Assembly: GCA_040772785.1 (NCBI GenBank)
Contig: JAXGXM010000008.1
Location: 6,344-70,343 of the forward strand
Length of the DNA: 64,000 bases
From: Anaerolineaceae bacterium
GTDB lineage: Bacteria > Chloroflexota > Anaerolineae > Anaerolineales > Anaerolineaceae
Direction: 5' to 3'
Position 1 is the first letter of the stretch. Each line of letters opens with the position of its first letter. The position numbers and the translations under genes are program-made. Below, piece by piece: positions 5,776 through 50,834 of this stretch. The notes below the pieces were generated by a model that worked only from the letters and a program-made list of their open reading frames with translations, was not told the origin of the DNA and ran no database searches.

Positions 5776-6297
5776 TCAATCATCAAGGGGATCTTTGAAA
5801 ATTTTAATCCGGTATTTATCAGTTTCAGTCACCGTCTCCTGTTCAGAGGCAACCCGGTAGAATTTTCCCAATCCTGCCCAACTGCAAAATTCCTGCACGA
5901 AACCCGCCAGGTAGTCGCTTTGGAGAGACGCGCTTCCCGGTTGGGGATTGACCTCAATGATCCAGTGACTTTTCAGATTTTCCAGCTGGATGGGGATGCT
6001 TTTCTCCATGCTTATTTTTTCGCAGATTGAATTGAGCCCAAGCGCGATTTTCTTTTTTACCGGCGAGAAGCGAAAAGCGGGCTCATCCCAACCCAGCATC
6101 TCGCGATGCTTTTCATGCCAGTGGTAAAACCCCGCTCTCCCCGCGCGATGGAGTGTGCCGCGAACCAGCAGATCTACCGGCTTTTCAGCCAGGCTTACCT
6201 TAAACTCGGTCGCCTTTTCTTCACCCAGGATGTCCACCAGGCTGAGGGTTTCGTAATCGGAATTTAAATTGCTTTGGAGTATTCCGTTCATCAACAA
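5776..6297 (-). CDS. Hypothetical protein (173 aa) co-oriented with the small GTPase
   Basis: Only a 9-nt gap separates it from the upstream GTPase gene. No confident motif was found; a V4R-like fold is only a guess. Confidence 0.4.
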   Translation of the reverse strand: MLMNGILQSNLNSDYETLSLVDILGEEKATEFKVSLAEKPVDLLVRGTLHRAGRAGFYHWHEKHREMLGWDEPAFRFSPVKKKIALGLNSICEKISMEKSIPIQLENLKSHWIIEVNPQPGSASLQSDYLAGFVQEFCSWAGLGKFYRVASEQETVTETDKYRIKIFKDPLDD

Positions 6298-6306
6298 TGC
6301 CCGGGT

Positions 6307-6867
6307 TTACGGCTGCCCCTGTTCAGATTCTTTGCGGTCCATTTCTTCGAGGATGCTGTAAAGCAGCTCAAGCAACACATTTTTTACTGAGCTTTTCTTT
6401 GTCGCCTCGCAAGTGAGAATCTTAACGGAAGGATCGAGCCTTAATGCCAGGCGCATATCCTCCACGTCCCAGGCGTCGTAAAGGTCCTGTTTATTGGCTG
6501 CTACCAGGTAGGGCGTGGGCGCGTAGGCGTGGAAGGTTTCAAGAATGCTGCGGGCTTCGCGGAACGTCTCTGGTCGGGTGCTATCCACCATAACAATAAA
6601 GCCCAGCATACCTTCCGAGAGGATCTCCCACATGAAGTCGAATCGTTTCTGCCCGGGTGTGCCAAAAAGAAATAACACAAGATCGTTGTCAACAGTGATC
6701 CTGCCAAAATCCATGGCCACCGTGGTGGTTTCTTTCACCTTTTCCGGCGCATAAGTGATCTTGCGCTCAGTGGATACAACGTCAATTTCACTGACTGATC
6801 GAATGAATTCCGTTTTCCCCGCATTGAAAGGCCCTGTTATTACAATTTTTACCGTCTGGGTCTGCAT
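6307..6867 (-). CDS. Ras-like small GTPase (MglA/CvnD-type ATP/GTP-binding protein)
   Basis: P-loop GPFNAGKT, switch II FGTPGQ, and NKQD specificity motif. Length is 186 aa. Confidence 0.75.
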   Translation of the reverse strand: MQTQTVKIVITGPFNAGKTEFIRSVSEIDVVSTERKITYAPEKVKETTTVAMDFGRITVDNDLVLFLFGTPGQKRFDFMWEILSEGMLGFIVMVDSTRPETFREARSILETFHAYAPTPYLVAANKQDLYDAWDVEDMRLALRLDPSVKILTCEATKKSSVKNVLLELLYSILEEMDRKESEQGQP

Positions 6868-6887
6868 AAATGATTCCTTTGATGATT

Positions 6888-7703
6888 TCAGATCGAGCGA
6901 ATGCGGTCGATCAGGCGTTTGATCAAGGGGCGATTCTCTTTGGGTTTATTGACCGGCAGTGATTGCCCGGGCAGCGCGACAGGCAGACCGTCCGGACGAA
7001 TGATCTCCACTAAACCAGCCTGCAGAAGCGTGTAGACCACGCGCCGGATTTCAATCTCATCGAGTTTCGTGGTCGCGGCGATCTGCCCGATGGTGTTCTT
7101 GGGGTTCACGTACGAGATGACGCGCCACTCAGTTGAGTTGAGGTTGATCTTGCGGATATCCGTACCGGGGCGTTCAGTGAATTTTAGCGCCATTTCAAGG
7201 CTGGGGATTTCCGCTTTTAGCTCCTCGATCTCCTGCAATTCCCGCGCGCCTTCAACGATCAGGTTGGATAGGTCAAGCCTGACCGGGATGCGATCTTCCG
7301 GAGAAATTTCGCCTGTTTCGAAACGGAAGAAACCATCGTCCCAGGTAAAGACGGGGCGCAAGTGGTCCGCGTATTCTTTTTCCAGTACCTCAAGCACCTG
7401 ATCAAGCGTTGCATAGCCGGCGTTCACCAGGTAGATGCCGATTTCCCGCTCGCTCTGATCTGCCAGCCGTTCCCGCAGCAGCCGGTGTTGTGATGCGGTG
7501 ATGAGCTGGTGATCGGTGAGGATCTTCAGCAGCGAGGGTTTTTCCTCGCTGGATTCAAAGTAGGTGAGTTTGCCGTTCTGAAACACTGCTCTGGCATAGA
7601 GACCGGGTTTCTCCACGTAAAGCGCGCCGGACTTATTCGCCAGGTTTATCAGGTTGAGCAATTGGGTGAATGTAAAATCCTTAAGATTACCTTTTAATGT
7701 CAT
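6888..7703 (-). CDS. DUF4388 (PATAN-like) domain protein
   Basis: The N-terminal GNLKDFTFTQLLNLINLANKSGALYV is the typical DUF4388 opening. The gene lies upstream of the small GTPase, as in known DUF4388-GTPase pairs. Confidence 0.65.
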   Translation of the reverse strand: MTLKGNLKDFTFTQLLNLINLANKSGALYVEKPGLYARAVFQNGKLTYFESSEEKPSLLKILTDHQLITASQHRLLRERLADQSEREIGIYLVNAGYATLDQVLEVLEKEYADHLRPVFTWDDGFFRFETGEISPEDRIPVRLDLSNLIVEGARELQEIEELKAEIPSLEMALKFTERPGTDIRKINLNSTEWRVISYVNPKNTIGQIAATTKLDEIEIRRVVYTLLQAGLVEIIRPDGLPVALPGQSLPVNKPKENRPLIKRLIDRIRSI

Positions 7704-7847: not shown

Positions 7848-9482
7848 ATGCCGCCCATCAAATCCGCTTTAGCCAAGTATGATCTCGATTTATTACAACG
7901 CATCGCCAGAGCCTGGGATGTGGAGATCAGCCAGCGGGATGCTTCCACTGCCAGGGTAGACCTGGCAGCCAGGATGGCAGAGAAGGATCTTTTTAAGTCA
8001 CTGATCGATGAATTACCCGAAGAAGTTAAAAATGCCTGGCTGGACCTGGCGGGCATGGGGGGGCGCCAGTCCTGGTCTGAATTTTCGCGGCTGTACGGGA
8101 CGATTCGCGATTTGGGTCCAGTCGCGCGCGAACGCGAAAATCCGGATCTAAAACCGGTTTCAATTTCTGAATCCTTATTTTATTCCGGGTTGATAGGGAG
8201 GGCTTTTTTCAGAGGTACAGGTGAACCGGTGGAGCACGCGTACATCCCCGATGAAATTCTTGGATTTTACGACAAACCTGCCGCCAGCAGGCTTCGATCA
8301 AGCATCCGGCCGGCTGTTAACCAAACCCCGCGCTTCATCGTAAGGGCTGATAACGCCATCCTGGATCAGTTGACTGATCTTCTGGCTGCCTGCAGGATGG
8401 GTCAATCATTATCGCAGTCTGTTTTCACCACCTGGGGAAAACCGCAACAATTTATGGAATCGCTGCTCATTTCAGCGGGAATTCTGGCCCCGGATGGGCA
8501 GCCTGGTGCGGACGCGCTGAAGCTTTTTTTCAACGCGGATCGGGATACAGGACTGCACCAGCTTTTCAAGGCCTGGTTTGATTCACGAGAGATCAATGAA
8601 CTCCGGATGCTGCCCGGATTGATATGTGAGGGTAACTGGCAGAATGACCCGGTTATGCCGCGCAAACTGGTGGCAGATCTTATCAGCGGGCTGGAGACGG
8701 GAACCTGGTGGAGCATCTCCTCGCTTCTCGCAACCGTGAAGGATACCAACCCTGATTTTCAGCGCCCGGCTGGTGATTATGACTCATGGTTCATCCGGGA
8801 GGAGAAAAGCAGCAAGTATCTCACTGGTTTCTCATCATGGGAACGGGTGGAAGGAGCTTTGCTCTATTACCTGCTCACCGGTCCAATGCACTGGCTGGGA
8901 TTGATCAACCTCGCCCGTGGCAGCAATGAAGGCAGGTTCACCGCGTTCCAGCTGGTGTCGCAAACCCGGCGAATGCTGCAGGGTGATTCTCCAATTACGG
9001 GGCAGAAAGAAAATAAACCTCTACAGATCAGGAATGTGCGCGTTGTGGTGTTACCGGTGGGAGCTTCGCGAGTGCTGCGCTACCAGGCGGGTAGATTCTG
9101 TGAACTCAACAGTGTCAGTCTGAAGGATTCGAGGTACCTGTTGACTGTGGCTTCGCTGACGAGAGCAGCTGATCAGGGATTGCAAATTCAGCAGCTGCTG
9201 CAGCTCCTCGAAAAAGAACAACCCGGGGTGGTGCCGGCTGAATTGCAGCGTCTGGCAGAACGTTGGAGCCGCAACGGTGTTGAAGCCGGCTTTGAGCAGG
9301 TCACGATATTACGGTTCAAGGATCAGGCGGGCTGTGATCAATTTGTAAAAGCTGCCGGTGGAAGATTTAATCTTGAGGTGTTGAACCCGCTTGTGGTATC
9401 GATCAAACCCTCGCAGCAGGAGGGGATCGTCCGCATGCTTGGAGAGATGGGCATTTTGGTGGAAACCGGAGCAGATGTATAA
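7848..9482 (+). CDS. Hypothetical 544-aa protein, possible XPB/Ssl2 N-terminal-like (helicase-associated) repeats
   Basis: I prefer the ATG at 7848, which follows AAGGA, over the TTG at 7821. The C-terminal segment (ILRFKDQAGCDQFVKAAGG..LNPLVVSI..IVRMLGEMGI) resembles helicase-associated domains. This is weak. Confidence 0.35.
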   Translation: MPPIKSALAKYDLDLLQRIARAWDVEISQRDASTARVDLAARMAEKDLFKSLIDELPEEVKNAWLDLAGMGGRQSWSEFSRLYGTIRDLGPVARERENPDLKPVSISESLFYSGLIGRAFFRGTGEPVEHAYIPDEILGFYDKPAASRLRSSIRPAVNQTPRFIVRADNAILDQLTDLLAACRMGQSLSQSVFTTWGKPQQFMESLLISAGILAPDGQPGADALKLFFNADRDTGLHQLFKAWFDSREINELRMLPGLICEGNWQNDPVMPRKLVADLISGLETGTWWSISSLLATVKDTNPDFQRPAGDYDSWFIREEKSSKYLTGFSSWERVEGALLYYLLTGPMHWLGLINLARGSNEGRFTAFQLVSQTRRMLQGDSPITGQKENKPLQIRNVRVVVLPVGASRVLRYQAGRFCELNSVSLKDSRYLLTVASLTRAADQGLQIQQLLQLLEKEQPGVVPAELQRLAERWSRNGVEAGFEQVTILRFKDQAGCDQFVKAAGGRFNLEVLNPLVVSIKPSQQEGIVRMLGEMGILVETGADV

Positions 9483-9515
9483 TTTTTACATAAACCAATA
9501 ACAAAAGAGGTGTAT

Positions 9516-10697
9516 ATGGGCAACAGGCTGGATTGGATCGGTCAGGAGATTGAAGGGCTAAGGGCTGCTGGATTGTACAACAACATTCGTACCCTGGCTT
9601 CACCGCAGGGCGCCTGGCTGGTAGTCGATGGCAGGCGGGTGTTAAACTTCTGTTCGAACAATTACCTTGGGTTGGCTAATCACCCCAAAATGGTTGAAGC
9701 CGCGATCGTAGCGCTGCGAAAATACGGTGTTGGTCCGGGCGCGGTACGATCCATCGCGGGAAACATGGAAATACACACGGAATTGGAGAATCGGCTGGCA
9801 AGGTTCAAGGGCGTGGAAGCGGCTGTGGTTTTGCAATCGGGTTTTTCAGCCAACACGGCTGTGATTCCCATTCTCGCAGGCAAAGAAGACTTGATCATAT
9901 CGGATGAACTCAATCATGCCAGTATCATAGACGGCAGCCGGCTCTCTGGCGCCCGCATCGAGAGGTACGCGCACGCTGACGCGGTTGATCTTGAGCGTGT
10001 GATTCTTGAGAACGCGGGCAAGTACCGCCGGGCGCTGGTGATCACGGACGGCGTATTCAGTATGGACGGTGATCTTGCGCCGCTTGATAAAATATACGAG
10101 GTCACAAACCGATATGACATCATGTTGATGGTGGACGACGCCCACGGCGAGGGTGTGGTAGGGCGTGGAGGACGGGGGATCGTGGACCATTTCAACCTGC
10201 ACGGTAAAGTGGATGTGGAGGTTGGCACGCTCTCGAAGGCTTTTGGTGTGGTAGGGGGCATTGTCGCCGGTAACGCAAAAATCATCGAATGGGTGCGCCA
10301 GCGCGGGCGTCCATTCCTGTTCTCATCCGCAACACCTCCCGCTGATGTTGCCGCCTGCATCGCAGCAGTGGACATCCTCGAAAATTCCACCGAACTTGTC
10401 GACCTGTTGTGGGAAAACGCGCGCTATTTCAAAGCTGAACTCAAGCGGATGGGTCTGGATATTGGCCACAGCGTCACCCCGATTACCCCGGTGATGCTGG
10501 GAGAAGCACCGCTTGCGCAGCAGTTCAGCCGTGAATTATTCAATGAGAACGTATTCGCCATGTCGCTCGGTTTCCCGACTGTTCCCCAGGGTAAGGCGCG
10601 CATCAGGGTGATGATCTCAGCCGCGCACAGCCGTGAAGATCTTGATAAGGTGCTGGCGGCGTTTGAAAAAGTCGCGAAAAAACTCGGCGTTATATAA
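9516..10697 (+). CDS. kbl: Glycine C-acetyltransferase (2-amino-3-ketobutyrate CoA ligase)
   Basis: [23 protein letters not shown], and the PLP-lysine motif GTLSKAFG. Length is about 393 aa. The ATG at 9516 follows AAGAGG; the track starts at GTG 9510. Confidence 0.8.
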
Positions 10698-13076: not shown

Positions 13077-14027
13077 TCAGGAGGGTATATTGTTATTGTA
13101 CTTATGTTTGCGCCGCTGAAGATAGGCTTCCCTGGCTTTGGTCAGCCCAAGCGGGGAAACTATCGCGAAGAGGATTCGGCGCCAATCCTGCAGCGCGGTG
13201 GAGGGGTGTTTCCGAAGGGAACGCCAATAAGCGCGCAACGAGCCTCTGAAGTCCTGCGCATCGAAAAGGTAAAACGCGTCCAATCGTTCCGCCCCGGCTT
13301 CAACCTGCTTTTGATTATTCATGAGCAGGTCTGCCAGTTCTGGTTGTGAACGTATCCACTCCAAAATACGGCGGGCTTCTTTGCCAAATTCAGCGGCATG
13401 AGCGGCGTTCTTGCTGCCGGCGTGATAGTGCTCGCCTGCCCATAACTGTGAAACGTACTGCGGCTGGGCTTTCATTGCCATTCGAAGCCAGAGGTGATGA
13501 TCAAGCAGGTAATGATAACTCTCGTCCAGGTATCCCGCTTCCATCAACACTTCACGGCGCATGAAAACTGATGGTTGCCCGATGATCTTGAATTCCATCA
13601 GTCCTTTCAACTTCCAGTCCTCATACGAGAGGATATTGGTCGTTTCACCGGCCGCGTTGACCACCTGCAAATTACCATAAACGAACCCGGCGCCGGGGTG
13701 CTCCTGCAGGGCACGCACCGCGTTTGTGATCGCTCCTGGTTGATAAAAGTCATCCGAGTTGAGCCAGGCGACAATGTCTCCAGTCGCCCGCCGCAGACCT
13801 TTGTTGATCCCATCTGCCTGACCCCGGTCTTTTTCGGAGACCCACCAGCTGATGCGGTCGCTATGCTTTTGGATGATCTCCACGCTGCCATCGATTGACC
13901 CGCCGTCTACCAACATGTACTCGATATTCAGATAATCCTGTTCAATAACCGAAAGGATGGCTTTTTCGAGGAAAAGCGCCTGGTTGTAGGAAGGTGTGAC
14001 GATCGAGACAGTGGGCTGTGTTTTCAT
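13077..14027 (-). CDS. Glycosyltransferase family 2
   Basis: VSIVTPSYNQ, VDGGSIDGS and NSDD. There is a 4-nt overlap with the upstream gene. Confidence 0.85.
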   Translation of the reverse strand: MKTQPTVSIVTPSYNQALFLEKAILSVIEQDYLNIEYMLVDGGSIDGSVEIIQKHSDRISWWVSEKDRGQADGINKGLRRATGDIVAWLNSDDFYQPGAITNAVRALQEHPGAGFVYGNLQVVNAAGETTNILSYEDWKLKGLMEFKIIGQPSVFMRREVLMEAGYLDESYHYLLDHHLWLRMAMKAQPQYVSQLWAGEHYHAGSKNAAHAAEFGKEARRILEWIRSQPELADLLMNNQKQVEAGAERLDAFYLFDAQDFRGSLRAYWRSLRKHPSTALQDWRRILFAIVSPLGLTKAREAYLQRRKHKYNNNIPS

Positions 14028-14830
14028 GAGAGGATCGCGTTGAAATCCACCTTGGGGAATACGGTCAGTTTCCCGTCCACCGTTGCATCCAGAATCTCGC
14101 GCCCATCCTCGAGGTAGGCTTCCTTGGCCATCCGATAGGCGATCTCGGAGGTTTCCAGGTCCGGCAGCTGCCAGCGGAAGCCCTGCCCGAAATAACCCGG
14201 GTGGAAATGATTGGGGTCATCACCGGTGGAGACGACTGTGGTATTGGGAGTGCCTTTGGTGGTGAAGTTGTGATCCACCCCGATGAGGATGACCTGCTTA
14301 AAACCCATAAAGTAGGCGAGTTGCATGGCAACGAATGTGACCGTCGCCCCTTCCCATAATCTGCCGGTGGCATTTTTATTGAAGCGCGGACGGATGTAAG
14401 ACGTGTAGAGATAGTGCAGGTTTTGCGCGGGTTGGATATGCTTTCTGCCGCGCCAGGACACAAATGTGGGAATGGGAAGCTGGCGCAAGTCTTCAGCGCA
14501 TTGTTCGATCACCAGGTCATTCACAGTGAGCAGCAGCGAGGTTGTGAAGCCGAGATCGGGAAAGGCCATATAAAACCGATTCATCCCGATCGAAAACACA
14601 TTCTTCAGTTTGCTCAAATCGGTATTCTTGAGGCTGGGACCGTTCCCGATGATCACGCACTGCTCACCGTTGTGAGAATCACGCAGGGTCTCCAATTTGC
14701 GGATCGAGTCAATACGCCATGGGTGAAAGCGTGCCAGGGGATATTCTGCTGCGATCTCAAGGCTGTCGCGCGAGGCGCGCAAGGCGTCGAGCATCGGCGC
14801 TGGGATGAGTTTTTTGATCTTTGACCGCAT
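14024..14830 (-). CDS. DUF115 / MptE-like (Maf-like) protein, candidate nonulosonic-acid transferase
   Basis: CVIIGNGPSL and GATVTFVAMQLAYFMGFKQVILIGVDHNF match the DUF115 (MAF_flag10) pattern. Confidence 0.55.
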   Translation of the reverse strand: MRSKIKKLIPAPMLDALRASRDSLEIAAEYPLARFHPWRIDSIRKLETLRDSHNGEQCVIIGNGPSLKNTDLSKLKNVFSIGMNRFYMAFPDLGFTTSLLLTVNDLVIEQCAEDLRQLPIPTFVSWRGRKHIQPAQNLHYLYTSYIRPRFNKNATGRLWEGATVTFVAMQLAYFMGFKQVILIGVDHNFTTKGTPNTTVVSTGDDPNHFHPGYFGQGFRWQLPDLETSEIAYRMAKEAYLEDGREILDATVDGKLTVFPKVDFNAILS

Positions 14831-16654: not shown

Positions 16655-18733
16655 CTACTTGCCTGCCAGGAAGTCGTAGAGAATAAAGTGATCGGGTCCA
16701 TCGATGGATTTACGCTCCCGCAAGCGATCCTCGAAGATCGATCGATACGGGTTCGATTCCAGCAGAGTATAAGGGTTCCCGAAGACGTAATCAAGCCCCA
16801 TAAGTTCCAGGAATTCATCCGCGGTTCCGTTCCTCATCGCTTCAAAATATGCCACACTGTTGATCAGCCCATCAAGATTCACGATCGTTCTGTTCTGGAT
16901 GAAATATGCTGTCTCACCACCGCCTGTCATACCGATCAAAGAGCCCTCCGGAGTTTCCTTCTCAAGCGATCTTATCTGCACAATATATTCAATTTCTTCT
17001 TCAGCGGGAATTGCGTAAGGATATTGGCGAACAAGGTATCTTGTGTGAAGGAACATCAGCAATACTGCCGCGGCGAATAGCAGGATTAGGTTGGGGGCAT
17101 TCCTCTTGGTTAGTTGACGGAATTTTTCGAAAATCTTCGAGCTGAATACCGCGCCTAGGAGCACAAGCAGCATTGATTCGGGCACCCAGTACCAGCTTCG
17201 GCTGTGACCGTATCCACGCGCTGCATAATACGCGATGTGCAGGAAGCATCCAATGGTAAGCGCGGGGATGAGAAGTGAAAATGATTTCCGCGCCAGGTAG
17301 CCGTCTTTTCTGGATAATAGGTAGACCATCAATATGAAGAATGTGAACAATAACGCCAGGAAGAGCAGCAGGGGAAGGTCATTTGCATCGCGTTTGAACA
17401 GGTTGCGCAGGAAGATCGCGCTATCCGCGATGATGGTTGTGATCAGCGACCAGGGGCTGTTACCGCTTCCCGGTGTCAATCCCAACAGGCTGACGAGCGT
17501 GTCGTTTTTCTTATAGATCGTGTTGGCAAGGGTGCCCCACCAGTTCTTCACCTGACCGCTGATAGGTGAGAGGGTGCCAAAAACACTCCGGTTCATCAGC
17601 ATATACCCGCCCACTAATAAAGAGATCGGCAATGAGTACACTACCCCGTTCCTGAAGATGAAAGGAACATCTTTTTCAATCCACTTAACAAAAGCCCGCC
17701 AGGGTGAGGGTGACCCACTCCTGCCTTGCCCCTTGTAAAAGATGCGAATGACCGCGATGCCTGCCATTGATAGACCCACCGCGATCAGTGTCAAGGAGCG
17801 GGAGATAAGCAGCTCAAAGCCAATGATCCGCAGCAGCATGAGCGCCCCGTATACCAGCACCGGAGAAATGATGCAGACCAGGATCAGGCGAAGGAGGAAC
17901 TCCCGATTCTTATCCTTATTCCACACTGAATAAAAACCACTAAAGAATAGAACGATCGTGATGATACTCATACTGGTAAGCATCAACGGATAGATGGAAT
18001 AGTTATTGTGTGTTGTTGGATTCGTGCCAAAGCGTATGATCCACGCTAAAACGGACATGATCAAAATGATTACCAGGTCGTAAATGATGAGTCGTTTGAT
18101 ACGTTTGATGCGAAATACGACGAACGTTCCGATCAAGCCAACCACGAAAATGTTGTCCAGGCGGCTCAAAATGGCAAGTGCGGAAAAAATCCCCAGCAGG
18201 ATGTAATCCCGCATCTTCGGCGCGGAATCGGTTTCGAGCAGTGGGACGCCTTTCAATAGAAGAAGCGCAATGAACAAGGCGCTCAGTCCGGATTCCAGTC
18301 CCTTGGTGGTGTAGTTGTTGTAGATCATCGGAAGCAGCGCCCATACCAGCGCACCGAGGATCGCAGCGTGAGGATGCAGGTAGCGGCGCAGCAAGCGAAA
18401 TAGGATCACCCCGGTGAGTCCGTTCAATAACCCGCTTACAAGAATCAGCACGCGCAGCGGAAGCAGCAGGTGAAACCTCGCCAGCCAGAAGACCGCCAGG
18501 CAGACCAGCATCCACAATGGATGGTAACCATTGGTGAGGTTAACCTGGTCGAATGTGAAACCGTGACCTTCGATAACGTTCCGGGCGACCTGGTAGTAGA
18601 AAAAGGCATCGTCGATCGAATACCAGTTCATCATACTGTTGGCGGGCGTCATGGCAGTATAAAGACTCCCGCTGATTCCCAGCAGGAGAATTGCGATTTG
18701 TGCAAAAATGAGCGCTCTTTTGGTCAGACCCAT
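16655..18733 (-). CDS. Large polytopic membrane protein (692 aa), GT-C-like or polymerase-like, with C-terminal soluble domain
   Basis: More than 14 hydrophobic segments, then a ~130-aa C-terminal domain (GMTGGGETAYF..NLDGLIN). No family was recognised with certainty. Confidence 0.45.
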   Translation of the reverse strand: MGLTKRALIFAQIAILLLGISGSLYTAMTPANSMMNWYSIDDAFFYYQVARNVIEGHGFTFDQVNLTNGYHPLWMLVCLAVFWLARFHLLLPLRVLILVSGLLNGLTGVILFRLLRRYLHPHAAILGALVWALLPMIYNNYTTKGLESGLSALFIALLLLKGVPLLETDSAPKMRDYILLGIFSALAILSRLDNIFVVGLIGTFVVFRIKRIKRLIIYDLVIILIMSVLAWIIRFGTNPTTHNNYSIYPLMLTSMSIITIVLFFSGFYSVWNKDKNREFLLRLILVCIISPVLVYGALMLLRIIGFELLISRSLTLIAVGLSMAGIAVIRIFYKGQGRSGSPSPWRAFVKWIEKDVPFIFRNGVVYSLPISLLVGGYMLMNRSVFGTLSPISGQVKNWWGTLANTIYKKNDTLVSLLGLTPGSGNSPWSLITTIIADSAIFLRNLFKRDANDLPLLLFLALLFTFFILMVYLLSRKDGYLARKSFSLLIPALTIGCFLHIAYYAARGYGHSRSWYWVPESMLLVLLGAVFSSKIFEKFRQLTKRNAPNLILLFAAAVLLMFLHTRYLVRQYPYAIPAEEEIEYIVQIRSLEKETPEGSLIGMTGGGETAYFIQNRTIVNLDGLINSVAYFEAMRNGTADEFLELMGLDYVFGNPYTLLESNPYRSIFEDRLRERKSIDGPDHFILYDFLAGK

Positions 18734-18734: not shown

Positions 18735-19418
18735 CTATGATTTTCGGGCTTTGATCATCATTTCGACCATTTTCAGGTCGATCTCTTCGTCAATATCAAG
18801 GGATTCTTCCGGGTCGGTTTCAAACAGAATCGGATCGTCTCCGATACGGGTGCCTTTTTTCGCCAGCGTGGCTGCTGAAAACAGGTAAATACAGGAATTC
18901 TCTTCATACACCGGCGGCAGGTCCTGGGTTTGGATCAGTACGCGCGGATCGTGATTGATCGCTCTGCCCTCATGGTCATACAAGCGGGTCTGCAGACGTG
19001 TAACCGAGAACAACGAATCTTTGCCCGGGTAGGCAGCAAGAAATGTGTGTATTGCTTTTGTAATCGTAGTCGCTTTCAGCAGCGGATTGGTGGAATGTGT
19101 TTGCAGGTAGAAATCAGCGGGCGCCTGGCTGATATCGTGTTGCAGGATTGTGTTCATTGAAATGTCATCTGCGCGCAATTCTTGCGGGCGATCGATGACT
19201 TTTATGGTCGGAAAGGACGCGAGCAACCCCTCGATGATTACCGGGCTGTCTGTGTCAACCACGATTTCCGCGATCTCAGAGACAGAAAGGAGCGTGGTCA
19301 GAATATGCTGGTATAAGGGTTTCCCATCCAGCAGGCGGTAATTCTTGTTTGGCACCCGCTGGGAATGATGACGCATGGGTACCAGTGCGGTTATCTTGGG
19401 GCGTGATTCCTCAGGCAT
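18735..19418 (-). CDS. Acylneuraminate cytidylyltransferase family (CMP-ulosonic acid synthetase)
   Basis: ALVPMRHHSQRVPNKNYRLLDGKPL, VVDTDS and LQTHSTNPL match the CTP_transf_3 pattern. Confidence 0.7.
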   Translation of the reverse strand: MPEESRPKITALVPMRHHSQRVPNKNYRLLDGKPLYQHILTTLLSVSEIAEIVVDTDSPVIIEGLLASFPTIKVIDRPQELRADDISMNTILQHDISQAPADFYLQTHSTNPLLKATTITKAIHTFLAAYPGKDSLFSVTRLQTRLYDHEGRAINHDPRVLIQTQDLPPVYEENSCIYLFSAATLAKKGTRIGDDPILFETDPEESLDIDEEIDLKMVEMMIKARKS

Positions 19419-19445
19419 TTGCTATCCTTCCTATATTTCGGTCGA

Positions 19446-19733
19446 TCATCCGCCGGTAATAACGGACATCAGGTGCAGGTGTTCGCCATCTTTTACAGGA
19501 TCATTAATCACCATCGCGGGGTTGGCATAGTCACCATCGATGATGAACATATTTGAACTGAGGAAGGTCTCACCATCCCCGGCGATCAGTACGCCGATAA
19601 GCGGGGGGTAGAGCTCTCCAAGATGGCGGATGAGGTCGCGATAGGTGGAGCCTTCCGGCAGGCTCAATGTTTTCTGTGCAGTGCCGGTGATGGTTTTCGA
19701 TAAACCGGTAAACTCAACAATAACGGTAAGCAT
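19446..19733 (-). CDS. MoaD/ThiS-like ubiquitin-fold protein ending in Gly-Gly
   Basis: 95 aa with a beta-grasp-like pattern (LSLPEGSTYRDLIRHL..., DGEHLHLMSVITGG). The C-terminal GG immediately precedes the stop. It is packed within 24-27 nt of both neighbours. Confidence 0.6.
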   Translation of the reverse strand: MLTVIVEFTGLSKTITGTAQKTLSLPEGSTYRDLIRHLGELYPPLIGVLIAGDGETFLSSNMFIIDGDYANPAMVINDPVKDGEHLHLMSVITGG

Positions 19734-19757
19734 GGATTTCTCCTTTCACACTCACCG

Positions 19758-20702
19758 CTAATTATACTGAATAGGTTGTACATCGCGCTGCCCGGTTTGT
19801 TTTTTATCGCCAGCCGGGTCGCGGGGGTAATAGAAAGCCTTCTTCAAGTGCCACGTTAGTGGACCGGACAGCCGGTAGCCCTGGTAGGTTCCGTAGAACT
19901 GACGCCAGCGAAAACCAGCGATCTTCCACCAGTTGGCTGAAAACGCTTTTTGCCGCCCGGCTTCCCGCCAATCGCTGATCACGTTTTGAAAAAATAGTTT
20001 GCCGAGATCGCGCAAATGGAAGGTCTCGTGCGGGTAGATGCGCTTAAAAGCCATCGCTTCACGTTTGTAGCGGTTGAAGATGCCCGCCAGGCTTTCGTTG
20101 TGTACGTGGATCACCTCGGCTTCAGCGCTGTAGGTGATGCCGTGTCCCTGTTCCTGCGCCCACTTACCCCATTCAAGGTCTTCCAGACCAGGCAGTGTTT
20201 CGTCGTAGGCATGTTCTTCCCATAGCTTGCGCCGGATGGCAGAATTGGCATTATTGCAAAAAGGAAGAGTCTGCCACTTAACCGATTCGTCGGGATACCA
20301 GTGATGAAAGATCTGGTGTTCTGAAAAGTGCGTGGTCGCTGCGCCGCGTTGTTTTCCATAAACCAGCGCGATTCGATCGTCTTCAAATGGTTCCAGCAGT
20401 CGCTCCAACCAATCCGGATAGACCGGGTACACGTGGGCGCTTGCCATCACGATTATCGGCGCGGCGGCATGTTGGATGCCGAGGTTGAGCGAACGTCCGA
20501 AGGTGAAATCCTGGGGGGCGATTTCAACGATCTCCACGGGGTAGTCCTGCGCAACGAGCCTGGTGTTGTCCGTTGAACCAGAGTCAACCAGGATGATCTG
20601 CGTGTTTTTTACACGCTGTTCCTGTATGCCTTGCAGCAGCCGGCCGAGGTGTTTTTCCTCGTTATACGCGCGAATGATGATCGAGCACTGCGGATTGGTC
20701 AT
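19758..20702 (-). CDS. Glycosyltransferase family 2
   Basis: CSIIIRAYNEEKHL and VDSGSTDNT. Confidence 0.8.
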   Translation of the reverse strand: MTNPQCSIIIRAYNEEKHLGRLLQGIQEQRVKNTQIILVDSGSTDNTRLVAQDYPVEIVEIAPQDFTFGRSLNLGIQHAAAPIIVMASAHVYPVYPDWLERLLEPFEDDRIALVYGKQRGAATTHFSEHQIFHHWYPDESVKWQTLPFCNNANSAIRRKLWEEHAYDETLPGLEDLEWGKWAQEQGHGITYSAEAEVIHVHNESLAGIFNRYKREAMAFKRIYPHETFHLRDLGKLFFQNVISDWREAGRQKAFSANWWKIAGFRWRQFYGTYQGYRLSGPLTWHLKKAFYYPRDPAGDKKQTGQRDVQPIQYN

Positions 20703-22309
20703 AACGGGTAGGTTAGCTCTCCTTTTCCAAGGATTCCATCCAGCAATGTTTTAACCGTAGCTGATTGCTCTGGTGTCAACCGATCGAGCGGAAAATCCTT
20801 GAGTTTCACATAGCCCTTCCATATTTGATCATCTTCCAGGAATTCGCCAAATTCCAGGGATGTTGCGAACAGCTGGTAGTATAGAAAGCGCCTGGCGTTG
20901 TGCATGAATTGCGGGGGAATTTCGATATCGTCAGCGGATAACAGCTGTTCCAGGAGCTGATTGTATGTCTCCGGAGAAGAGGGGTAGAATGCGGTTTCGA
21001 GCTGCGTAAAACGCGCTTTTCCTCCCGCGATGACCGGTTTTCCGAGCAGCGTGGCTTCCAACCCGATGGTCGAGTTGTACACCATTACCAGGTGTGAACG
21101 ATGTATAAGTTCATAGGAATTTACAAATTCATTGCTGTCGTAAAAAACCACGTTTGGCAGATCAAGAATTCCTGAGGCGCGCACCCAATTCCCCACGCTT
21201 TCGCGGCTCTCCTTCCCGGGGCGGCTTTCATCCGGGTGGGCGCGCAAAACGAAGAGGATCGCGGGGTGAGCACGGGCGATCTCCTGCACATTTTCCAGCC
21301 AGGCGAACATGTGGGAAAAGATCGTGTTGGCGTGCACCTGGCTTGTATCGAAGATGACATTTGTGAAAACCGGAACGATTTTGCTGTACTTTTCAGCTTT
21401 CTCGATGAATGCTGGGTCCAGAGGCTTGATCTCAGGCCAGAAGCGGATGCCCGCCATTGAGAAGTCTCCTTTGAACCGGTCAGCCAGGTAATCATCCAGG
21501 CGTTTGTTCATTTCAGCACTCAGTTGAAAGCCCGGGTCGATATCCATCGGGTAAGCGGTAGCTTCACCTGTTGTGAAGAAAGCGGTGTAAGGGCGCAGAC
21601 CTACTTCGTGAGTGATCACACGAATGCCTTTTTGCAGGCAGGCGTGACGGACTGCCGCCTCGGGGTAGAACATGCCGTTAAATACAACTACAGCACGAGG
21701 GTTTTCTGTTTGGATCAGGTTGGAAAACTGGTGGTAGACGTTCCAGGCAGAAATGATGAACGCGCGCATAAAAGCACGATTTTGTTCATTATCCAGCAGG
21801 GTGTGGCGGCGCAGTACCCAGCGCAGCGAGTTGAGCGCCCAGAATCCCAGCGGGTTTTCCTGGTAAGTGAAGGATTCCAGTTCATTCACGGAGAGATCCG
21901 AGAGCAATTGTTCCAACTCGGGGTATTCCTCAGCCTTAAACCAGCGCGTATCCATACCGCTGAAAACCGCCCGGCTTTGCCTGGTGCAGTACTCGCACGG
22001 GGGAGGAGTTGTGAAATCATCCCGGTTGCTGCCCAGCACACAGCGCTCAAGACCTCTGTCACACACAAACTGGATAACCGGTACCCCTGCCAGCCTCACC
22101 ATCAGGGCGGTCAGCAGTGAATACGCCGCGTTCTGGCTCATCGCCTGTAACCGGGTCGAAGCGTTGAAGAAGATGACCGGACGCCTGTCATCGGTTTTCA
22201 ATGCTTCTTGGTTCACATTTTCAATTAGCGCCTGCCAGCGCTGATTGCCTTTACGGTGCACCAATCGCTGGCGGATGCCGTTCTTTATCCTCTGGTAGGT
22301 AGGTTTCAA
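20699..22309 (-). CDS. Capsule polysaccharide biosynthesis (KpsC/KpsS, Capsule_synth)-like protein
   Basis: LRAHPDE and VYNSTIGLEATLLGKPVIAGGKARF resemble the KpsS/KpsC C-terminal core. It has an extra Cys cluster CDRGLERC...CEYC. It is a paralog of 36767-38371. Confidence 0.5.
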   Translation of the reverse strand: MKPTYQRIKNGIRQRLVHRKGNQRWQALIENVNQEALKTDDRRPVIFFNASTRLQAMSQNAAYSLLTALMVRLAGVPVIQFVCDRGLERCVLGSNRDDFTTPPPCEYCTRQSRAVFSGMDTRWFKAEEYPELEQLLSDLSVNELESFTYQENPLGFWALNSLRWVLRRHTLLDNEQNRAFMRAFIISAWNVYHQFSNLIQTENPRAVVVFNGMFYPEAAVRHACLQKGIRVITHEVGLRPYTAFFTTGEATAYPMDIDPGFQLSAEMNKRLDDYLADRFKGDFSMAGIRFWPEIKPLDPAFIEKAEKYSKIVPVFTNVIFDTSQVHANTIFSHMFAWLENVQEIARAHPAILFVLRAHPDESRPGKESRESVGNWVRASGILDLPNVVFYDSNEFVNSYELIHRSHLVMVYNSTIGLEATLLGKPVIAGGKARFTQLETAFYPSSPETYNQLLEQLLSADDIEIPPQFMHNARRFLYYQLFATSLEFGEFLEDDQIWKGYVKLKDFPLDRLTPEQSATVKTLLDGILGKGELTYPL

Positions 22310-23181
22310 TCCTGGATCCGTCTCAATTTTCGCAGCGAAGGTTTTTCGCTTTCATAGACTTTTTTGACACCATCACCGATTGCGGCTTCAGTGACGCGGA
22401 TGTATTTCACCAGTCTCTCAAAGCCGCCCGGTTCAACGGAAGCTGCCTGGTCTGAACCCCAAAGCGCCCGGTCGAGTGTAATGTGGCGCTCCACCAGGCA
22501 AGCGCCCAATCCCACCGCCACAGCAGAGGTGACCAAACCGACCTCATGACCCGAATATCCAATCGGGCAGTTGAACATGTCGCGCAGGGTGTGGATCATT
22601 CGCAGGTTCAACTCATACGGGTCGCATGGGTAGGAACTGGTGGTGTGGGTGATGATGAGGTTGTCTTCACCGATCAGGCTTACCGCAGACTTGATCTGGT
22701 CGAGGGTGGACATTCCCGTGGAAAGGATAAGAGGCCTGCCGGTCGACCGTAGGTGTTTCAGGAGACCGCTATCGGTAAGCGAGGCTGAAGGAACTTTGTA
22801 AGCGATGGGATTGTATTTTTCCATGAAATCGACAGAGGGTTCATCCCATACGGAGACAAACCAGTCTATACCCGTCTCGCGTGCGAAAGAGTCAATGTCA
22901 TCATATTCCTCTTCCGTAAATTCCACCTTGTAGCGATAGTCCAGGTACGAGATGTAACCCCAGGGGGTCTCGCGCATCTGGTTGCGCTGATCAAGGGGAA
23001 CACACAATTCCGGTGTCCGCTTCTGAAATTTCACTGCGTCCACATTAGCGCGCTTGCCAACCTGGATGAGTTCCTTGGCGATGCCAAGATCTCCGTTATG
23101 GTTGATCCCGATCTCGGCGACGAGATACGCCGGGTGACCATCACCGATCCATTTGTTTCCGATCTTTACTTCTCTTGCCAT
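22306..23181 (-). CDS. NeuB-family (N-acetylneuraminate/ulosonate) synthase lacking the C-terminal SAF domain
   Basis: YLVAEIGINHNGDLGIAKELI..DAVKFQKR and GYSGHEVG. The likely start is the MAREVKIG ATG at 23181, 22 nt after the upstream stop. That gives ~291 aa ending right after the TIM barrel. Confidence 0.8.
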   Translation of the reverse strand: MAREVKIGNKWIGDGHPAYLVAEIGINHNGDLGIAKELIQVGKRANVDAVKFQKRTPELCVPLDQRNQMRETPWGYISYLDYRYKVEFTEEEYDDIDSFARETGIDWFVSVWDEPSVDFMEKYNPIAYKVPSASLTDSGLLKHLRSTGRPLILSTGMSTLDQIKSAVSLIGEDNLIITHTTSSYPCDPYELNLRMIHTLRDMFNCPIGYSGHEVGLVTSAVAVGLGACLVERHITLDRALWGSDQAASVEPGGFERLVKYIRVTEAAIGDGVKKVYESEKPSLRKLRRIQD

Positions 23182-23203
23182 TGAATTCTCCTGTGAAAAG
23201 AGG

Positions 23204-24445
23204 TTATTTACCAAATTTTTGTAAAAGCATATCGCAGAATTCCCGCACTGCACCGCGGCCACCCTTGCGATTAAGGACAAGGTCAGCGCTTCTTATAACT
23301 TCGGGTTCCGCGTCAGCAGGCACAACAGCGTACCCTGCCATGTCAAGGCATCCCAGGTCGTTGACATCATTACCGATGAACACGATCTCTTCTGCTGAAA
23401 TCCCCTTTTGCTGCATCACATTGCGCAGCACAGCGGGTTTGTCTTTTATCCCCTGGTAGACTTCCAGTTTGAGTTTTTTGCAGCGAGCTGTTACCACCGG
23501 GTTGACCTCGGTGGAGATGACGATAAACTCAATGGGTAACGCTTCGCGTACCAGCCGGATGCCCATGCTGTCGCCGCGCGACGTTGCCACTTTCTCAACA
23601 CCATTTTCATCTACATAAACGATATTGTCGGTCAACACGCCGTCAAAATCCATCGCTACCAGCGAAATCTTAGATGGAAAATGCCGTCTCCGGCTGGCAG
23701 GATCGACCATGTCAAGGTCGCCGTTGCGCACAAGCCATTCGTAGCGCTGCCAGTCAAACGGCGTATCGATATCCACTGTGTAGCGGGCGTCAATTAAGTA
23801 AGGGAGTATCACTTTGCCGCTCATGGAGGCCTGCTCAAGGATGACACTCGGGCGGATGACATCGATGTGCCCGGTCTGCCAGTAAGTGGGTGGCAGCGCC
23901 TGTCGCGGAGAATTGAATGGTTCAGCCAGGTCTTCAAGTTCAAGCAGCGGGGTCATTGGCTGATCCTTGCCAGTCAACCGCCACATTTTGTAGGGGTTCT
24001 GACCGCTGGGCACCACCCCGCGCACGCTGTCCGCTTCAGGATGTTTTTGCAGGAGCGCGACCGCCTCATCCACGCATTGACGCGGGCGGATGGGGGAGGT
24101 GGGGCGCAGTTGGATCACCAGGTCAGGCGAATAGTTCTCGTTGTCTTTCAGCCATTTCAGGGCGTGCTCAAAAACCGGCAGGTCAGTGGTCTGATCCTGC
24201 GCCAGTTCCGGTGGGCGGATGAAAGGTGTCTCAGCGCCAAATTGCCGCGCAACCGCGGCGATCTCCTCGTCATCGGTCGAAACGATCACCCGGGTGACGC
24301 TCTGAGATTGCAGTGCAGCGGCGATGCTGTAACTGATCAGCGGATAACCGGCGAACAGTTTGATGTTCTTGCGCGGAATGCCTTTGGAGCCGCCGCGCGC
24401 CGGGATCACTGCGAGGACTTCTGTTCTCTTTACCACGCTGTCCAT
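23204..24445 (-). CDS. Fusion protein: CMP-N-acylneuraminate cytidylyltransferase (N-terminal) plus HAD KdsC-type phosphatase (C-terminal)
   Basis: The N-terminal part has AVIPARGGSKGIPRKN, VSTDD and LRPTSP. The C-terminal part has MDFDGVLTDN, SRGDSMG and IGNDVNDL (HAD motifs I-IV, subfamily IIIA KdsC/NANP-like). Confidence 0.8.
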   Translation of the reverse strand: MDSVVKRTEVLAVIPARGGSKGIPRKNIKLFAGYPLISYSIAAALQSQSVTRVIVSTDDEEIAAVARQFGAETPFIRPPELAQDQTTDLPVFEHALKWLKDNENYSPDLVIQLRPTSPIRPRQCVDEAVALLQKHPEADSVRGVVPSGQNPYKMWRLTGKDQPMTPLLELEDLAEPFNSPRQALPPTYWQTGHIDVIRPSVILEQASMSGKVILPYLIDARYTVDIDTPFDWQRYEWLVRNGDLDMVDPASRRRHFPSKISLVAMDFDGVLTDNIVYVDENGVEKVATSRGDSMGIRLVREALPIEFIVISTEVNPVVTARCKKLKLEVYQGIKDKPAVLRNVMQQKGISAEEIVFIGNDVNDLGCLDMAGYAVVPADAEPEVIRSADLVLNRKGGRGAVREFCDMLLQKFGK

Positions 24446-33639: not shown

Positions 33640-34707
33640 TTACTCTCCCAGGTCCACCCAGCGCAGCTCCCTGCCGGCGGGTAGATCCTTCAAAGCTCGC
33701 GTGCCAATTACCCGGTTGACCTGGTCGGGACGGATGGCGCCGGGGGTAGCCGGGCGAAGGACGTCGATCATGTCGCGGGTTAAAATCTCACCCGCTTTTA
33801 TCTCGCGCGCAGCGCGCAGACAGCGGCGTTGAACGATGGTCGTGTCTTTTTCGTTGCCGCTGATGGTTTTATCCGCTGACCCCATCGCGCGTTCCAGTTC
33901 ACGGGTGCGATCGACCATATCATGCCAGGTTTCCGGCGTCATGGAAAACGGGTGATCGGGTCCGACTCGTGAAGTATCATCAGTGAAGTGTTTCTCTACT
34001 ACCCTGCCGCCCAGCGCGATCGCGCCAAGCACCGTGGCGTGCCCGTGCGTGTGGTCGGATAAGCCCACTGTGATACCCGGGAACAGTGTTTGATAGGTCT
34101 GCAGTACGCGCAAATGAATGTGATCAAAATTGACCGGGCTGGCTGTGTAATTGGTGTTGCATTGCAGTAGCACCAGCTGGGGATTGATCGCCAGAACGGT
34201 GTGCACCGCCTGCTGCACCTCGCCAATGCTGGCGGCGCCGGTGGATAGGATGACCGGTTTGCCTTTGCGGGCGATATATTCAAGCATCTCAAGCCAGTCA
34301 ACATCTCCTGAGCCGATCTTGTGAGCGGGAACGAATGGATCGAGGTAGTCCACCGCTTCGAAGTCATAGGGGGAGGAGAAATAATCGATGCCGACCTTAT
34401 CGCATTCCTCTTTCAGGATGGGTGTCCAATCGAAGGGTATCGAAGCGTCGGAATAGACCTCAAAAACACTTTTCTTCCAGGTTGACTGATGGGAAACCTG
34501 CCCCTGCATTGCCTTAAAGCCGTAATCAGATACGATCCTGGCTGCGCGGAAGTTCTGAAACTTGGCGGCATCAGCGCCGGCTTCTTTGGCGAGCTTGATC
34601 AGCAGTTTAGCACGCTCAAGGCTGCCGTCGTGGTTCGCTGAGATGTCCGCGATGAAGTAGGTGGGATGTTCCGGACCGATCAGGTGACTGCCAATTTTTA
34701 CGTCCAT
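33640..34707 (-). CDS. neuB: NeuB/SpsE-type nonulosonic acid synthase with C-terminal SAF domain
   Basis: YFIADISANHDG, DAAKFQNF and LSDHTHG. The C-terminal REIKAGEILTRDMIDVLRP is the SAF domain. Confidence 0.85.
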   Translation of the reverse strand: MDVKIGSHLIGPEHPTYFIADISANHDGSLERAKLLIKLAKEAGADAAKFQNFRAARIVSDYGFKAMQGQVSHQSTWKKSVFEVYSDASIPFDWTPILKEECDKVGIDYFSSPYDFEAVDYLDPFVPAHKIGSGDVDWLEMLEYIARKGKPVILSTGAASIGEVQQAVHTVLAINPQLVLLQCNTNYTASPVNFDHIHLRVLQTYQTLFPGITVGLSDHTHGHATVLGAIALGGRVVEKHFTDDTSRVGPDHPFSMTPETWHDMVDRTRELERAMGSADKTISGNEKDTTIVQRRCLRAAREIKAGEILTRDMIDVLRPATPGAIRPDQVNRVIGTRALKDLPAGRELRWVDLGE

Positions 34708-39634: not shown

Positions 39635-39645
39635 GCTTTTTTCCT

Positions 39646-40500: not shown

Positions 40501-40502
40501 AA

Positions 40503-41940
<1,438 letters not shown>

Positions 41941-44372: not shown

Positions 44373-44397
44373 CACTCCCGTAAGGGAGTGTTTTGTT
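44373..44397 (+). terminator. Rho-independent terminator after tRNA-Phe
   Basis: CACTCCC-GTAA-GGGAGTG followed by TTTTGTT. Confidence 0.7.
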
Positions 44398-44458
44398 ACT
44401 GGAAGGCGATGAGCTTCTGGTTTATGATTGGACCAATGACGAAAGAGCAGGGAAAAGT

Positions 44459-45334: not shown

Positions 45335-45336
45335 AA

Positions 45337-45363
45337 AACAGGAGCCAAAACTTGGCTCCTGTT
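45337..45363. terminator. Bidirectional terminator between convergent genes
   Basis: 12-bp stem AACAGGAGCCAA / TTGGCTCCTGTT flanked by A-run and T-rich sequence. Confidence 0.6.
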
Positions 45364-45383
45364 TATGTGTAACGGGAGTTTAC

Positions 45384-46109: not shown

Positions 46110-46137
46110 TCTAATCTCCTGTAAATGAGTGTAAACC

Positions 46138-47019: not shown

Positions 47020-47104
47020 GATTTTTCTCCTTTTGAAAAGATTTAGACTTTTACTTGCTGTATCTTGCTTTTATTCTAACATTAAGGTTCGACAAGCTTT
47101 CTCA

Positions 47105-47140
47105 GAAAAATCATGGCGAATTAACATAATTCGCCATGAT
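47105..47140 (-). terminator. Rho-independent terminator of the decarboxylase operon
   Basis: 13-bp palindrome ATCATGGCGAATT...AATTCGCCATGAT, followed on the minus strand by TTTTTCTG. Confidence 0.6.
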
Positions 47141-47188
47141 CATCTTACCGGGTATTACTTTGAAACCGGTGTTGCATTATTTCCAGCC

Positions 47189-48334: not shown

Positions 48335-48351
48335 GATAATATCCTTTCCGC

Positions 48352-49139: not shown

Positions 49140-49156
49140 TATCCTTATCCTTTCCG

Positions 49157-50719: not shown

Positions 50720-50834
50720 TACTACCTCCGTTAATTTATGTGATGATTAACAATACTAATAGTTTAAGGCGAGATGTCTAACATTTCAAGTGATACTTTT
50801 AGCGTGATAGCTGGCATTTTGTCACATATCTTTA

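Follow-up and report, generated by a model that had tools for sequence, protein, structure and literature searches.

The stretch of Anaerolineaceae DNA analyzed here (64 kb in full length, hereafter the window) encodes on its minus strand a protein of 95 residues (19446–19733), which starts with ATG and ends in ...HLHLMSVITGG followed by a TGA stop codon. Positions 19449–19454 encode the C-terminal Gly-Gly, at which adenylation and thiocarboxylation presumably take place. The small gene lies between two longer ones of the same strand. The upstream gene encodes a GT2 glycosyltransferase (19758–20702; PF00535, E 5.6e-22) and its stop codon, TAG (19758–19760), is followed by a spacer of 24 nt (19734–19757) before the ATG. 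On the coding strand this spacer reads CGGTGAGTGTGAAAGGAGAAATCC, and it provides the small gene with its own Shine-Dalgarno sequence, AAGGAG, located 6 nt from the ATG. A second spacer of 27 nt (19419–19445), carrying the Shine-Dalgarno sequence GGAAGGA, leads to the downstream gene for a CMP-sugar cytidylyltransferase of the nonulosonate type (18735–19418; PF02348 CTP_transf_3, E 1.1e-27), which also weakly matched PseF. The first-pass annotation had described the same 95-residue protein ending in VITGG, the same two neighbors and gaps of 27 and 24 nt; the gaps are exact and the other assignments were borne out, with all three genes on the minus strand. The GT2 and cytidylyltransferase genes form the left and right borders, respectively, of what is referred to below as the insertion slot.

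The three genes belong to a set of nonulosonic-acid glycan operons (10733–41486), recognized by the Pfam and NCBIfam scans, and all the genes of this cluster (about 10.7–41.5 kb) lie on the minus strand. The cluster holds two NeuB-type synthases, three CMP-sugar cytidylyltransferases (one fused to a KdsC-like phosphatase), two Capsule_synth/BFO_1060-like putative transferases, one MptE/Maf-like protein, GT2, GT4, and GT-C (PMT_2) enzymes, dehydrogenases, and a Wzm/Wzt ABC exporter. No member of a ThiG-like family was found in any ORF of the cluster or in the syntenic modules of relatives. A Pfam scan of the large ORFs of the window and seven small non-overlapping ORFs found no E1, JAMM, MoaE, rhodanese, or ThiG, and no Moa/Thi biosynthesis genes. 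The first-pass statement that the window lacks E1, JAMM, molybdopterin, and thiamine genes thus stood with regard to biosynthesis genes, but it had passed over a xanthine-dehydrogenase-type enzyme dependent on the molybdenum cofactor (Moco), encoded at 56917–60720. A tblastn search of the 64-kb window with the small protein matched only the gene itself, and exact-protein look-ups of the genes at the ends of the window gave no match on record.

The ORF is a real gene and not a chance reading frame, as indicated by its 89 homologs, an invariant C-terminal TGG, its Shine-Dalgarno sequence, and a low dN/dS ratio. The median dN/dS (Nei-Gojobori) was 0.14 among the copies located in the glycan slot and 0.29 among the other copies; the gene is under purifying selection. 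Two contigs assembled from the RNA of sediment metatranscriptomes, with an identity of about 96%, span the junctions on both sides of the ORF: X2 (19585–20102) extends from the GT2 gene into the ORF, and X5 (19273–19503) continues from the ORF into the gene for the cytidylyltransferase. These contigs weakly indicate co-transcription of the three genes, being assembled at low depth without strand information and with DNA carry-over possible. The GC and GC3 contents of the ORF are those of its flanks, and its composition gives no sign of recent foreign origin.

Fold and family of the 95-residue protein

The ThiS model PF02597 matched the protein over its full length (model positions 1–76 of 76) with 33.0 bits (E 9e-8), above the gathering score of 22.5 bits, and the same match was already precomputed for most of its homologs. 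An AF2 model built from a 50-sequence alignment displayed a beta-grasp fold (pLDDT 83.9, pTM 0.76), in which the only disordered part is a flexible tail formed by the last four residues (91–94, numbered without Met1; pLDDT <50). In a Foldseek search against the PDB, 25 matches were obtained at E ≤ 1e-3. The top match was SAMP1 of Haloferax volcanii (3po0; TM 0.83, E 8.5e-7), followed by mycobacterial MoaD2, Methanosarcina acetivorans SAMP1, human MOCS2A, HVO_2177, Urm1, and CysO; the top 25 are nearly all chains of SAMP1, MoaD, Urm1, or CysO. ThiS itself was a poorer match. A profile search of PDB sequences agreed with this ranking, and the N-terminal motif F-x-x-L-A-R-x-I-x-G lined up with MoaD-type chains. 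Both the membership of the ThiS/MoaD family and the beta-grasp fold, which the first-pass annotation had read from the letters alone, were thus confirmed by these searches.

Against NCBIfam, the protein scored 19.8 bits with the SAMP1 model (NF041918; curated cut-off 60) and 19.1 bits with moaD_arch (TIGR01687; curated cut-off 49.5), in both cases below the cut-off, and it gave no match to the MoaD model TIGR01682. The SAMP1 model weakly matched 46 of 50 family members, with a best E-value of 4.4e-6. Among the nearest outgroup relatives (n = 57), the SAMP1 model was matched by 53 and moaD_arch by 51. When 1.84 billion cluster representatives were searched exhaustively with the profile, only 181 relatives were retrieved at E ≤ 1e-3. 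The 89 homologs have identities of 44–93%, and those with a named source all come from metagenome bins of Anaerolineaceae-type Chloroflexota. Judging from the small number of relatives and from an outgroup consisting of SAMP1 and archaeal-type MoaD proteins, we regard the family as a small, divergent, lineage-restricted offshoot of the SAMP1/archaeal-type MoaD branch. Long proteins with 11–14 partial profile matches also appeared in the search and are probably spurious; the one examined (P0219) contains ankyrin repeats, and its helices resemble the LGEKYPELIG helix of the carrier.

The terminal TGG does not vary within the 50-sequence alignment, and in all members it closes the protein or very nearly does so; in five relatives, a short tail follows the Gly-Gly, as in the precursors of processed ubiquitin-like (Ubl) carriers. 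The alignment also contains an invariant core specific to the family, T-F-L-S-S-(N)-x-F-x-I (TFLSSN.F.I). Compared with SAMP1 (Haloferax volcanii; NF041918, 3po0), the carrier shares a length of about 90 residues, the beta-grasp fold, and the terminal Gly-Gly, but the identity is 17%, the carrier is bacterial (Anaerolineaceae) instead of archaeal, and it has its own invariant TFLSSN motif. The C-terminus also differs, being MSVITGG in the carrier in contrast to the FPPVSGG type of SAMP1. Conjugation and the partners JAMM and UbaA are features of SAMP1 and would be hypothetical for the carrier. SAMP1 acts both as a modifier and, in MPT synthase, as the small subunit (PMC4443979).

The carrier as an insertion in the glycan module

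The distribution of the carrier gene was examined in a scan of one genome per species (GTDB), and the context of each locus was read by probing it with proteins of the window. The scan gave 38 loci in 38 species genomes, with a single member of the subfamily in each, all from Anaerolineaceae or related Chloroflexota. At 18 of the 38 loci, the gene occupies the slot between the GT2 and cytidylyltransferase genes (46–82% identity to the window's protein). At 16 loci (37–55% identity) it lies among genes for xanthine-dehydrogenase-type (XDH-type) enzymes, a cyclase, AllH/AllG/AllF, and a 241-residue protein (unk241), and the remaining four (41–49% identity) gave no probe match. A neighbor-joining tree of 40 distinct carrier sequences placed the slot copies in one clade nested inside the island copies (bootstrap 180/200, 90%).

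The GT2 gene adjoining the carrier has thousands of homologs, and most orthologous modules lack the carrier. Three loci (L049–L051) contain GT2 orthologs of 64–68% identity and the same module gene for gene, with the GT2 gene directly followed by the cytidylyltransferase gene; a ThiS-like sequence was undetectable there even at E 10. One of the three belongs to Bellilinea, a genus whose carrier gene was found in the island. A metagenome scan with the GT2 alignment yielded 80 loci with an ortholog of the window's GT2. The junction was direct, with no ThiS-like sequence anywhere in the locus, in 49 of these; the insert was present in 13, another arrangement was found in 12, and six loci were too short for a call. 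The carrier is therefore absent from 49 of the 62 classifiable junctions, in contrast to what would be expected of an integral component of the module. All loci with a GT2 of at least 68% identity to that of the window have the insert. In the direct junctions examined, 0–31 nt separate the GT2 stop codon from the cytidylyltransferase start, and in all insert-bearing loci a spacer of 12–32 nt, purine-rich and Shine-Dalgarno-like in most, precedes the ThiS-like gene. Comparison of the junctions indicated that the insert consists of the ORF and its own ribosome-binding site, and nothing more.

A tree of the two border genes (GT2 + cytidylyltransferase, 72 modules) placed all 26 insert-bearing modules in one derived clade (92/100), with about 40 insert-free modules outside it. 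One insert-free group (L050, L051, and L060–L063) lies within the insert clade as the sister of the deepest insert-bearing lineage (91/100), which points to one gain followed by one clean loss. A strict split of the modules with and without the insert received a bootstrap of only 5–8%; these six loci nest inside the insert clade. We do not take the nesting to refute a single origin, given that the slot copies all fall into one clade of the ThiS tree. The gene contents of the modules with and without the insert are otherwise identical, and the module comparison revealed no sulfur-transfer enzyme, ThiG/BexX-like protein, rhodanese, E1, or other enzyme gained together with the insert.

These comparisons lead us to regard the carrier as a late insertion into an already complete glycan module. 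The insertion would have taken place in the common ancestor of a single Anaerolineaceae clade, where the gene and its own ribosome-binding site came to lie between the GT2 and cytidylyltransferase genes of a complete, pre-existing nonulosonic-acid glycan module, and the gene would have been co-transcribed there since as a passenger. The carrier thus probably travels with the glycan operon without taking part in the modification of sugars. Set against passenger status, the slot has been kept with tight spacing and strong constraint across lineages whose carriers are 46–82% identical to the window's copy, and retention this long and tight would also be compatible with a function gained within the operon.

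The first-pass annotation had proposed a role in the glycan pathway itself, namely a thio-modified sugar or the tagging of a glycosylation component. In such a scheme, the carrier would have been co-opted after capture, giving sulfur to a nonulosonic-acid or other sugar intermediate or activating a carboxylate for the glycan. This scheme agrees with the tight packing of the gene between the GT2 and cytidylyltransferase genes and its co-transcription with both, as well as with its long retention in the slot under purifying selection. Sulfur-carrier proteins reportedly feed 2-thiosugar biosynthesis via BexX, as Sasaki and colleagues are said to have described in Nature in 2014, and the BexX/CysO complex (4n6e) was among the fold matches. 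In the BexX system, a carrier of the same superfamily (CysO/ThiS/MoaD type) gives its sulfur to a sugar; this route is the only known link of the ThiS/MoaD family to sugar chemistry. The BexX system, however, requires a ThiG-like enzyme (BexX) within the cluster and draws on carriers from other sites, whereas here the carrier is in the cluster and no ThiG-like enzyme accompanies it. In the known thiosugar case, the carriers are encoded by housekeeping genes outside the cluster. The proposal was not supported by the analysis and is further weakened by the module being complete without the gene at 49 of 62 junctions and in L049–L051, by the sublineage that lost the insert with its module otherwise intact, and by the orthologs of deeper lineages, which lie outside glycan clusters in the XDH island while the slot copies form a single derived clade. 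We therefore consider co-option by the glycan pathway very improbable. The more specific proposal that the carrier modifies the nonulosonic-acid glycan of this clade, as a thio-nonulosonate or through conjugation to a glycosylation enzyme, with an E1 encoded elsewhere and an existing enzyme of the module as the acceptor, seems to us equally hard to credit. If glycan co-option were true, the carrier would provide the first case of a sulfur-carrier protein devoted to a surface nonulosonate glycan. In full-text literature searches, no description of a ThiS/MoaD-type gene within a nonulosonic-acid cluster came to light, and on Anaerolineae nonulosonate glycans there was a single passing mention.

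Association with xanthine-dehydrogenase operons and probable function

The window itself contains the island in which the carrier gene resides in other lineages. A purine/oxamate-type catabolic island spans 44–61 kb, with parts of it 25–40 kb from the carrier, and includes AllH, the 241-residue protein, a cyclase, a Na+-pumping decarboxylase (OAD), a nucleoside-type ABC importer, an amidohydrolase, and the XDH-type molybdoenzyme. The molybdoenzyme (56917–60720, minus strand) consists of Moco, FeS, and FAD subunits (Pfam MoCoBD_1/2, Fer2_2, and FAD_binding_5), the MoCoBD subunit being located at 56917–59274. The organism therefore requires the molybdenum cofactor. XDH orthologs with 64–69% identity adjoin the ThiS-like gene at three loci (L007, L008, and L029). 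The 241-residue protein (45384–46109, minus strand) belongs to no Pfam family; tblastn located its orthologs (53–58% identity) just upstream of the ThiS-like gene and divergently transcribed at five further loci (L026, L032, L034, L037, and L044) and on the P0082 contig.

The commonest gene order outside the glycan slot is cyclase–XDH (FAD, FeS, Moco)–CoxG–xanthine/uracil permease–NmrA-like–unkA–unkB–carrier, on one strand throughout, where unkA is an unknown protein of about 165 residues and unkB a membrane protein of about 110 residues. The string XDH–CoxG–permease–NmrA–unkA–unkB–ThiS is annotated in several loci, and the genes beyond the carrier vary. The XDH2–CoxG–NmrA block was not seen in the window. 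A search with unkA retrieved a tiny family of 14 proteins. In two loci (L132 and L133), NmrA–unkA–unkB is followed by an AT-rich spacer of 410 nt without a ThiS remnant. These loci are no more than suggestive of an empty donor site of the carrier.

The recurrent proximity to the NmrA-like protein, unkA, and unkB in island-type loci would be in line with a role other than that of a carrier. TmoB and RnfH are beta-grasp proteins without sulfur chemistry, and the present protein might likewise be a subunit or adaptor whose partner is NmrA–unkA–unkB or XDH and whose Gly-Gly is a relic. The absence of an E1 nearby would agree with such a role. On the other hand, the TGG is invariant and lies at the C-terminus of all members or very close to it, the slot clade keeps the gene without unkA or unkB nearby, and L132 and L133 keep NmrA–unkA–unkB without the carrier. 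We accordingly give this possibility very little weight.

In the superfamily, the C-terminal Gly-Gly is adenylated by an E1 of the MoeB/ThiF/UbaA type and converted to a thiocarboxylate, which donates its sulfur. By analogy, an E1-type enzyme (MoeB/ThiF/UbaA-like) encoded elsewhere would adenylate the flexible Gly-Gly tail of the carrier, a persulfide donor would turn the adenylated C-terminus into a thiocarboxylate, and the carrier would hand this sulfur to a biosynthetic enzyme. The search for an E1 was negative for the window and for about 50 related loci, and no MoaE, MoeB, rhodanese, or JAMM gene was adjacent in any context examined, the island-type neighborhoods included. The lack of an adjacent E1 is unremarkable, because it is usual for MoaD-type genes; MoaD genes rarely adjoin MoeB, and distinct MoaD paralogs occur beside enzymes with pterin cofactors (PMC1779556). 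We regard this class of mechanism, as predicted from the superfamily, together with the passenger status of the gene in the glycan operon, as well supported.

With respect to the enzyme receiving the sulfur, the likeliest client would be molybdopterin synthase, with the carrier in a MoaD-like role supplying the XDH-type enzymes that adjoin its gene in other lineages; the XDH-type enzyme of the window (56917–60720) is a likely client of the cofactor pathway. The carrier resembles MoaD (TIGR01682/TIGR01687; 1fm0, 6jbz, and 5mpo) in its fold, length, Gly-Gly tail, and N-terminal F..(R/K)..G, as well as in adjoining molybdoenzyme operons in other lineages without an adjacent E1, which is usual for MoaD (PMC1779556). 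A parallel to the XDH-island home of the family is provided by the AOR-linked MoaD paralogs that Iyer, Burroughs and Aravind described in 2006 (PMC1779556), where a distinct MoaD-like gene adjoins a given oxidoreductase with a pterin cofactor and is separate from the main operon for cofactor synthesis. The neighboring enzyme of the carrier differs in belonging to the xanthine dehydrogenase family and not to the tungsten AORs, and AOR neighborhoods often include MoeB or MoaE, whereas those of the carrier contain neither. Set against the Moco reading are the curated MoaD and SAMP1 cut-offs, which the carrier misses by far, the lack of an adjacent MoaE in any context examined, and the invariant TFLSSN.F.I motif peculiar to the family.

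The same fold and Gly-Gly chemistry would also suit a carrier that delivers sulfur outside Moco synthesis, for example in TtuB-like 2-thiolation of tRNA or in CysO/HcyS-like synthesis of cysteine or homocysteine. CysO and Urm1 were among the fold matches, and the gene has been retained although the XDH2–CoxG–NmrA block is not seen in the window. Ubl carriers, moreover, serve W/Mo-cofactor synthesis and tRNA thiolation redundantly (PMC11323500), which leaves room for such a function. No TtuA/NcsA, CysM, or Mec+ gene was found near the carrier in any context examined, however, and its sole recurrent association is with molybdoenzyme operons; a pathway of this kind is, in our estimation, unlikely.

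A further proposal takes the best structural match, SAMP1, at its word: the carrier would be a ubiquitin-like modifier in the style of SAMP, TtuB, or Urm1, with its Gly-Gly joined to lysines of target proteins, possibly glycosylation enzymes. The weak matches of 46 of the 50 members to the SAMP1 model are in line with this, and the tails after the Gly-Gly in some relatives, which would need a JAMM-type peptidase, hint at processing. SAMP1 (PMC4443979) and the Thermococcus Ubls (PMC11323500) both carry sulfur and form protein conjugates. Nevertheless, the search of the window and the examined neighborhoods revealed neither a JAMM nor an E1 gene, the SAMP1 score is far below the cut-off, and nothing points to glycosylation enzymes as targets. 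In known systems, conjugation accompanies sulfur transfer and does not replace it, and we judge a modifier function to be improbable. A modifier role could coexist with sulfur transfer.

We presume that the carrier is an E1-activated thiocarboxylate carrier, most likely for Moco synthesis, residing in the glycan operon as a passenger, and we hold this account as a whole to be somewhat probable. The MoaD-like role in cofactor synthesis is the best single guess, given the recurrent placement beside molybdoenzyme operons, the need of the organism for Moco, the precedent of MoaD paralogs linked to enzymes, and the rarity of MoaD genes next to MoeB.

The present case illustrates a failure of guilt by association: a packed, conserved, and co-transcribed gene turns out, when relatives are compared, to have entered at a late stage a module that functions in its absence. 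This comparison leaves no case for a new system of thio-sugar synthesis or glycan tagging. There remains a small, uncharacterized branch of SAMP1/MoaD carriers, restricted to Anaerolineaceae, with a motif of its own and a link to XDH-type operons elsewhere. This family could be a bacterial counterpart of the dual-use archaeal Ubl carriers.

Tails in the ThiS-like family and partial matches to its profile

In a few homologs of the ThiS-like protein (P0059, P0061, P0062, P0066, and P0070), one to nine residues follow the Gly-Gly motif, as in GGSLQTSKYSP, GGQS, and GGEVKS. If these tails are real, a C-terminal peptidase would be required ahead of activation; alternatively, the tails could be due to errors in gene calling or assembly. 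An exhaustive search also returned six proteins of about 1000–1800 residues (P0219, P0234, P0266, P0284, P0288, and P0292), each containing 3–14 segments that partly matched the N-terminal half of the ThiS-like profile. One of them, P0219, belongs to the ankyrin-repeat proteins, and the VQWLAENYPDL helices that recur in it mimic the LGEKYPELIG helix of the ThiS-like family. Because of this mimicry, the partial matches are probably spurious.

Catabolic island and the unkA-unkB pair

The window also carries a catabolic island of the purine/oxamate type (44393–60720). It encodes AllH, a 241-residue unknown protein, a cyclase, an amidohydrolase, a Bmp-type ABC importer, and an XDH-type molybdoenzyme, together with the carboxyltransferase, gamma subunit, biotin carrier, and beta subunit of a Na+-translocating decarboxylase. 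Additional island genes found in relatives are AllF/AllG and a second XDH paralog accompanied by CoxG, a permease, and an NmrA-like gene.

In most of the relatives' loci where the ThiS-like gene lies among such catabolic genes, the NmrA-like and ThiS-like genes flank a conserved pair of unknown genes, unkA (about 165 residues, soluble) and unkB (about 110 residues, a membrane protein with two transmembrane segments). The pair is located at 8992–9907 in locus L039, 9042–9906 in L046, 10302–11167 in L007, and 6001–6821 in L132. Neither protein belongs to a Pfam family, and the unkA family has only 14 members among 5.8 billion proteins. In the Anaerolineae MAG GCA_013178185.1, NmrA-unkA-unkB is followed by a 410-nt AT-rich spacer (L132, 6822–7231; L133, 2345–2754) and then by the XDH1 operon. 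No ThiS-like remnant was found in this spacer, which may represent an ancestral site emptied of the ThiS-like gene.

Glycan module and its surroundings

Just downstream of the cytidylyltransferase gene, the module varies: a gene for a 692-residue PMT_2-like membrane protein (16655–18733, minus strand) lies there in the window and in most relatives but is missing from six loci (L001–L003, L012, L015, and L049). Between the cytidylyltransferase-phosphatase gene and NeuB, some modules, among them ones with and ones without the ThiS-like insert, have an additional gene of the radical-SAM/SPASM type (L009/L010, 5464–6525; L050, 4427–5488), which is absent from the window.

The NeuB ORF at 22306–23280 (minus strand) was mechanically called as 324 residues with a TTG start and a 77-nt overlap with the upstream gene. 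Since its orthologs are called at 289–291 residues, the true start is probably an internal ATG near 23181 (MAREVKIG...), which would leave a 22-nt gap between the two genes.

Just outside the glycan cluster, a Ras/Arf-like small GTPase (6307–6867) adjoins a DUF4388/PatA_N protein (6888–7703) and a 173-residue unknown protein (5776–6297), all on the minus strand (5776–7703), an arrangement similar to that of MglA-type polarity modules.

The surface-glycan supercluster itself spans about 30 kb (10733–41486, minus strand). On this strand it encodes two NeuB-type nonulosonate synthases (22306–23280 and 33640–34707), two Capsule_synth/BFO_1060-like putative nonulosonate transferases (20699–22309 and 36767–38371), three CMP-sugar cytidylyltransferases, an MptE/Maf-like protein (14024–14830), and a Wzm/Wzt exporter (38372–40536). 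This gene content suggests that an Anaerolineaceae bacterium carries two different nonulosonic acids on one glycan.
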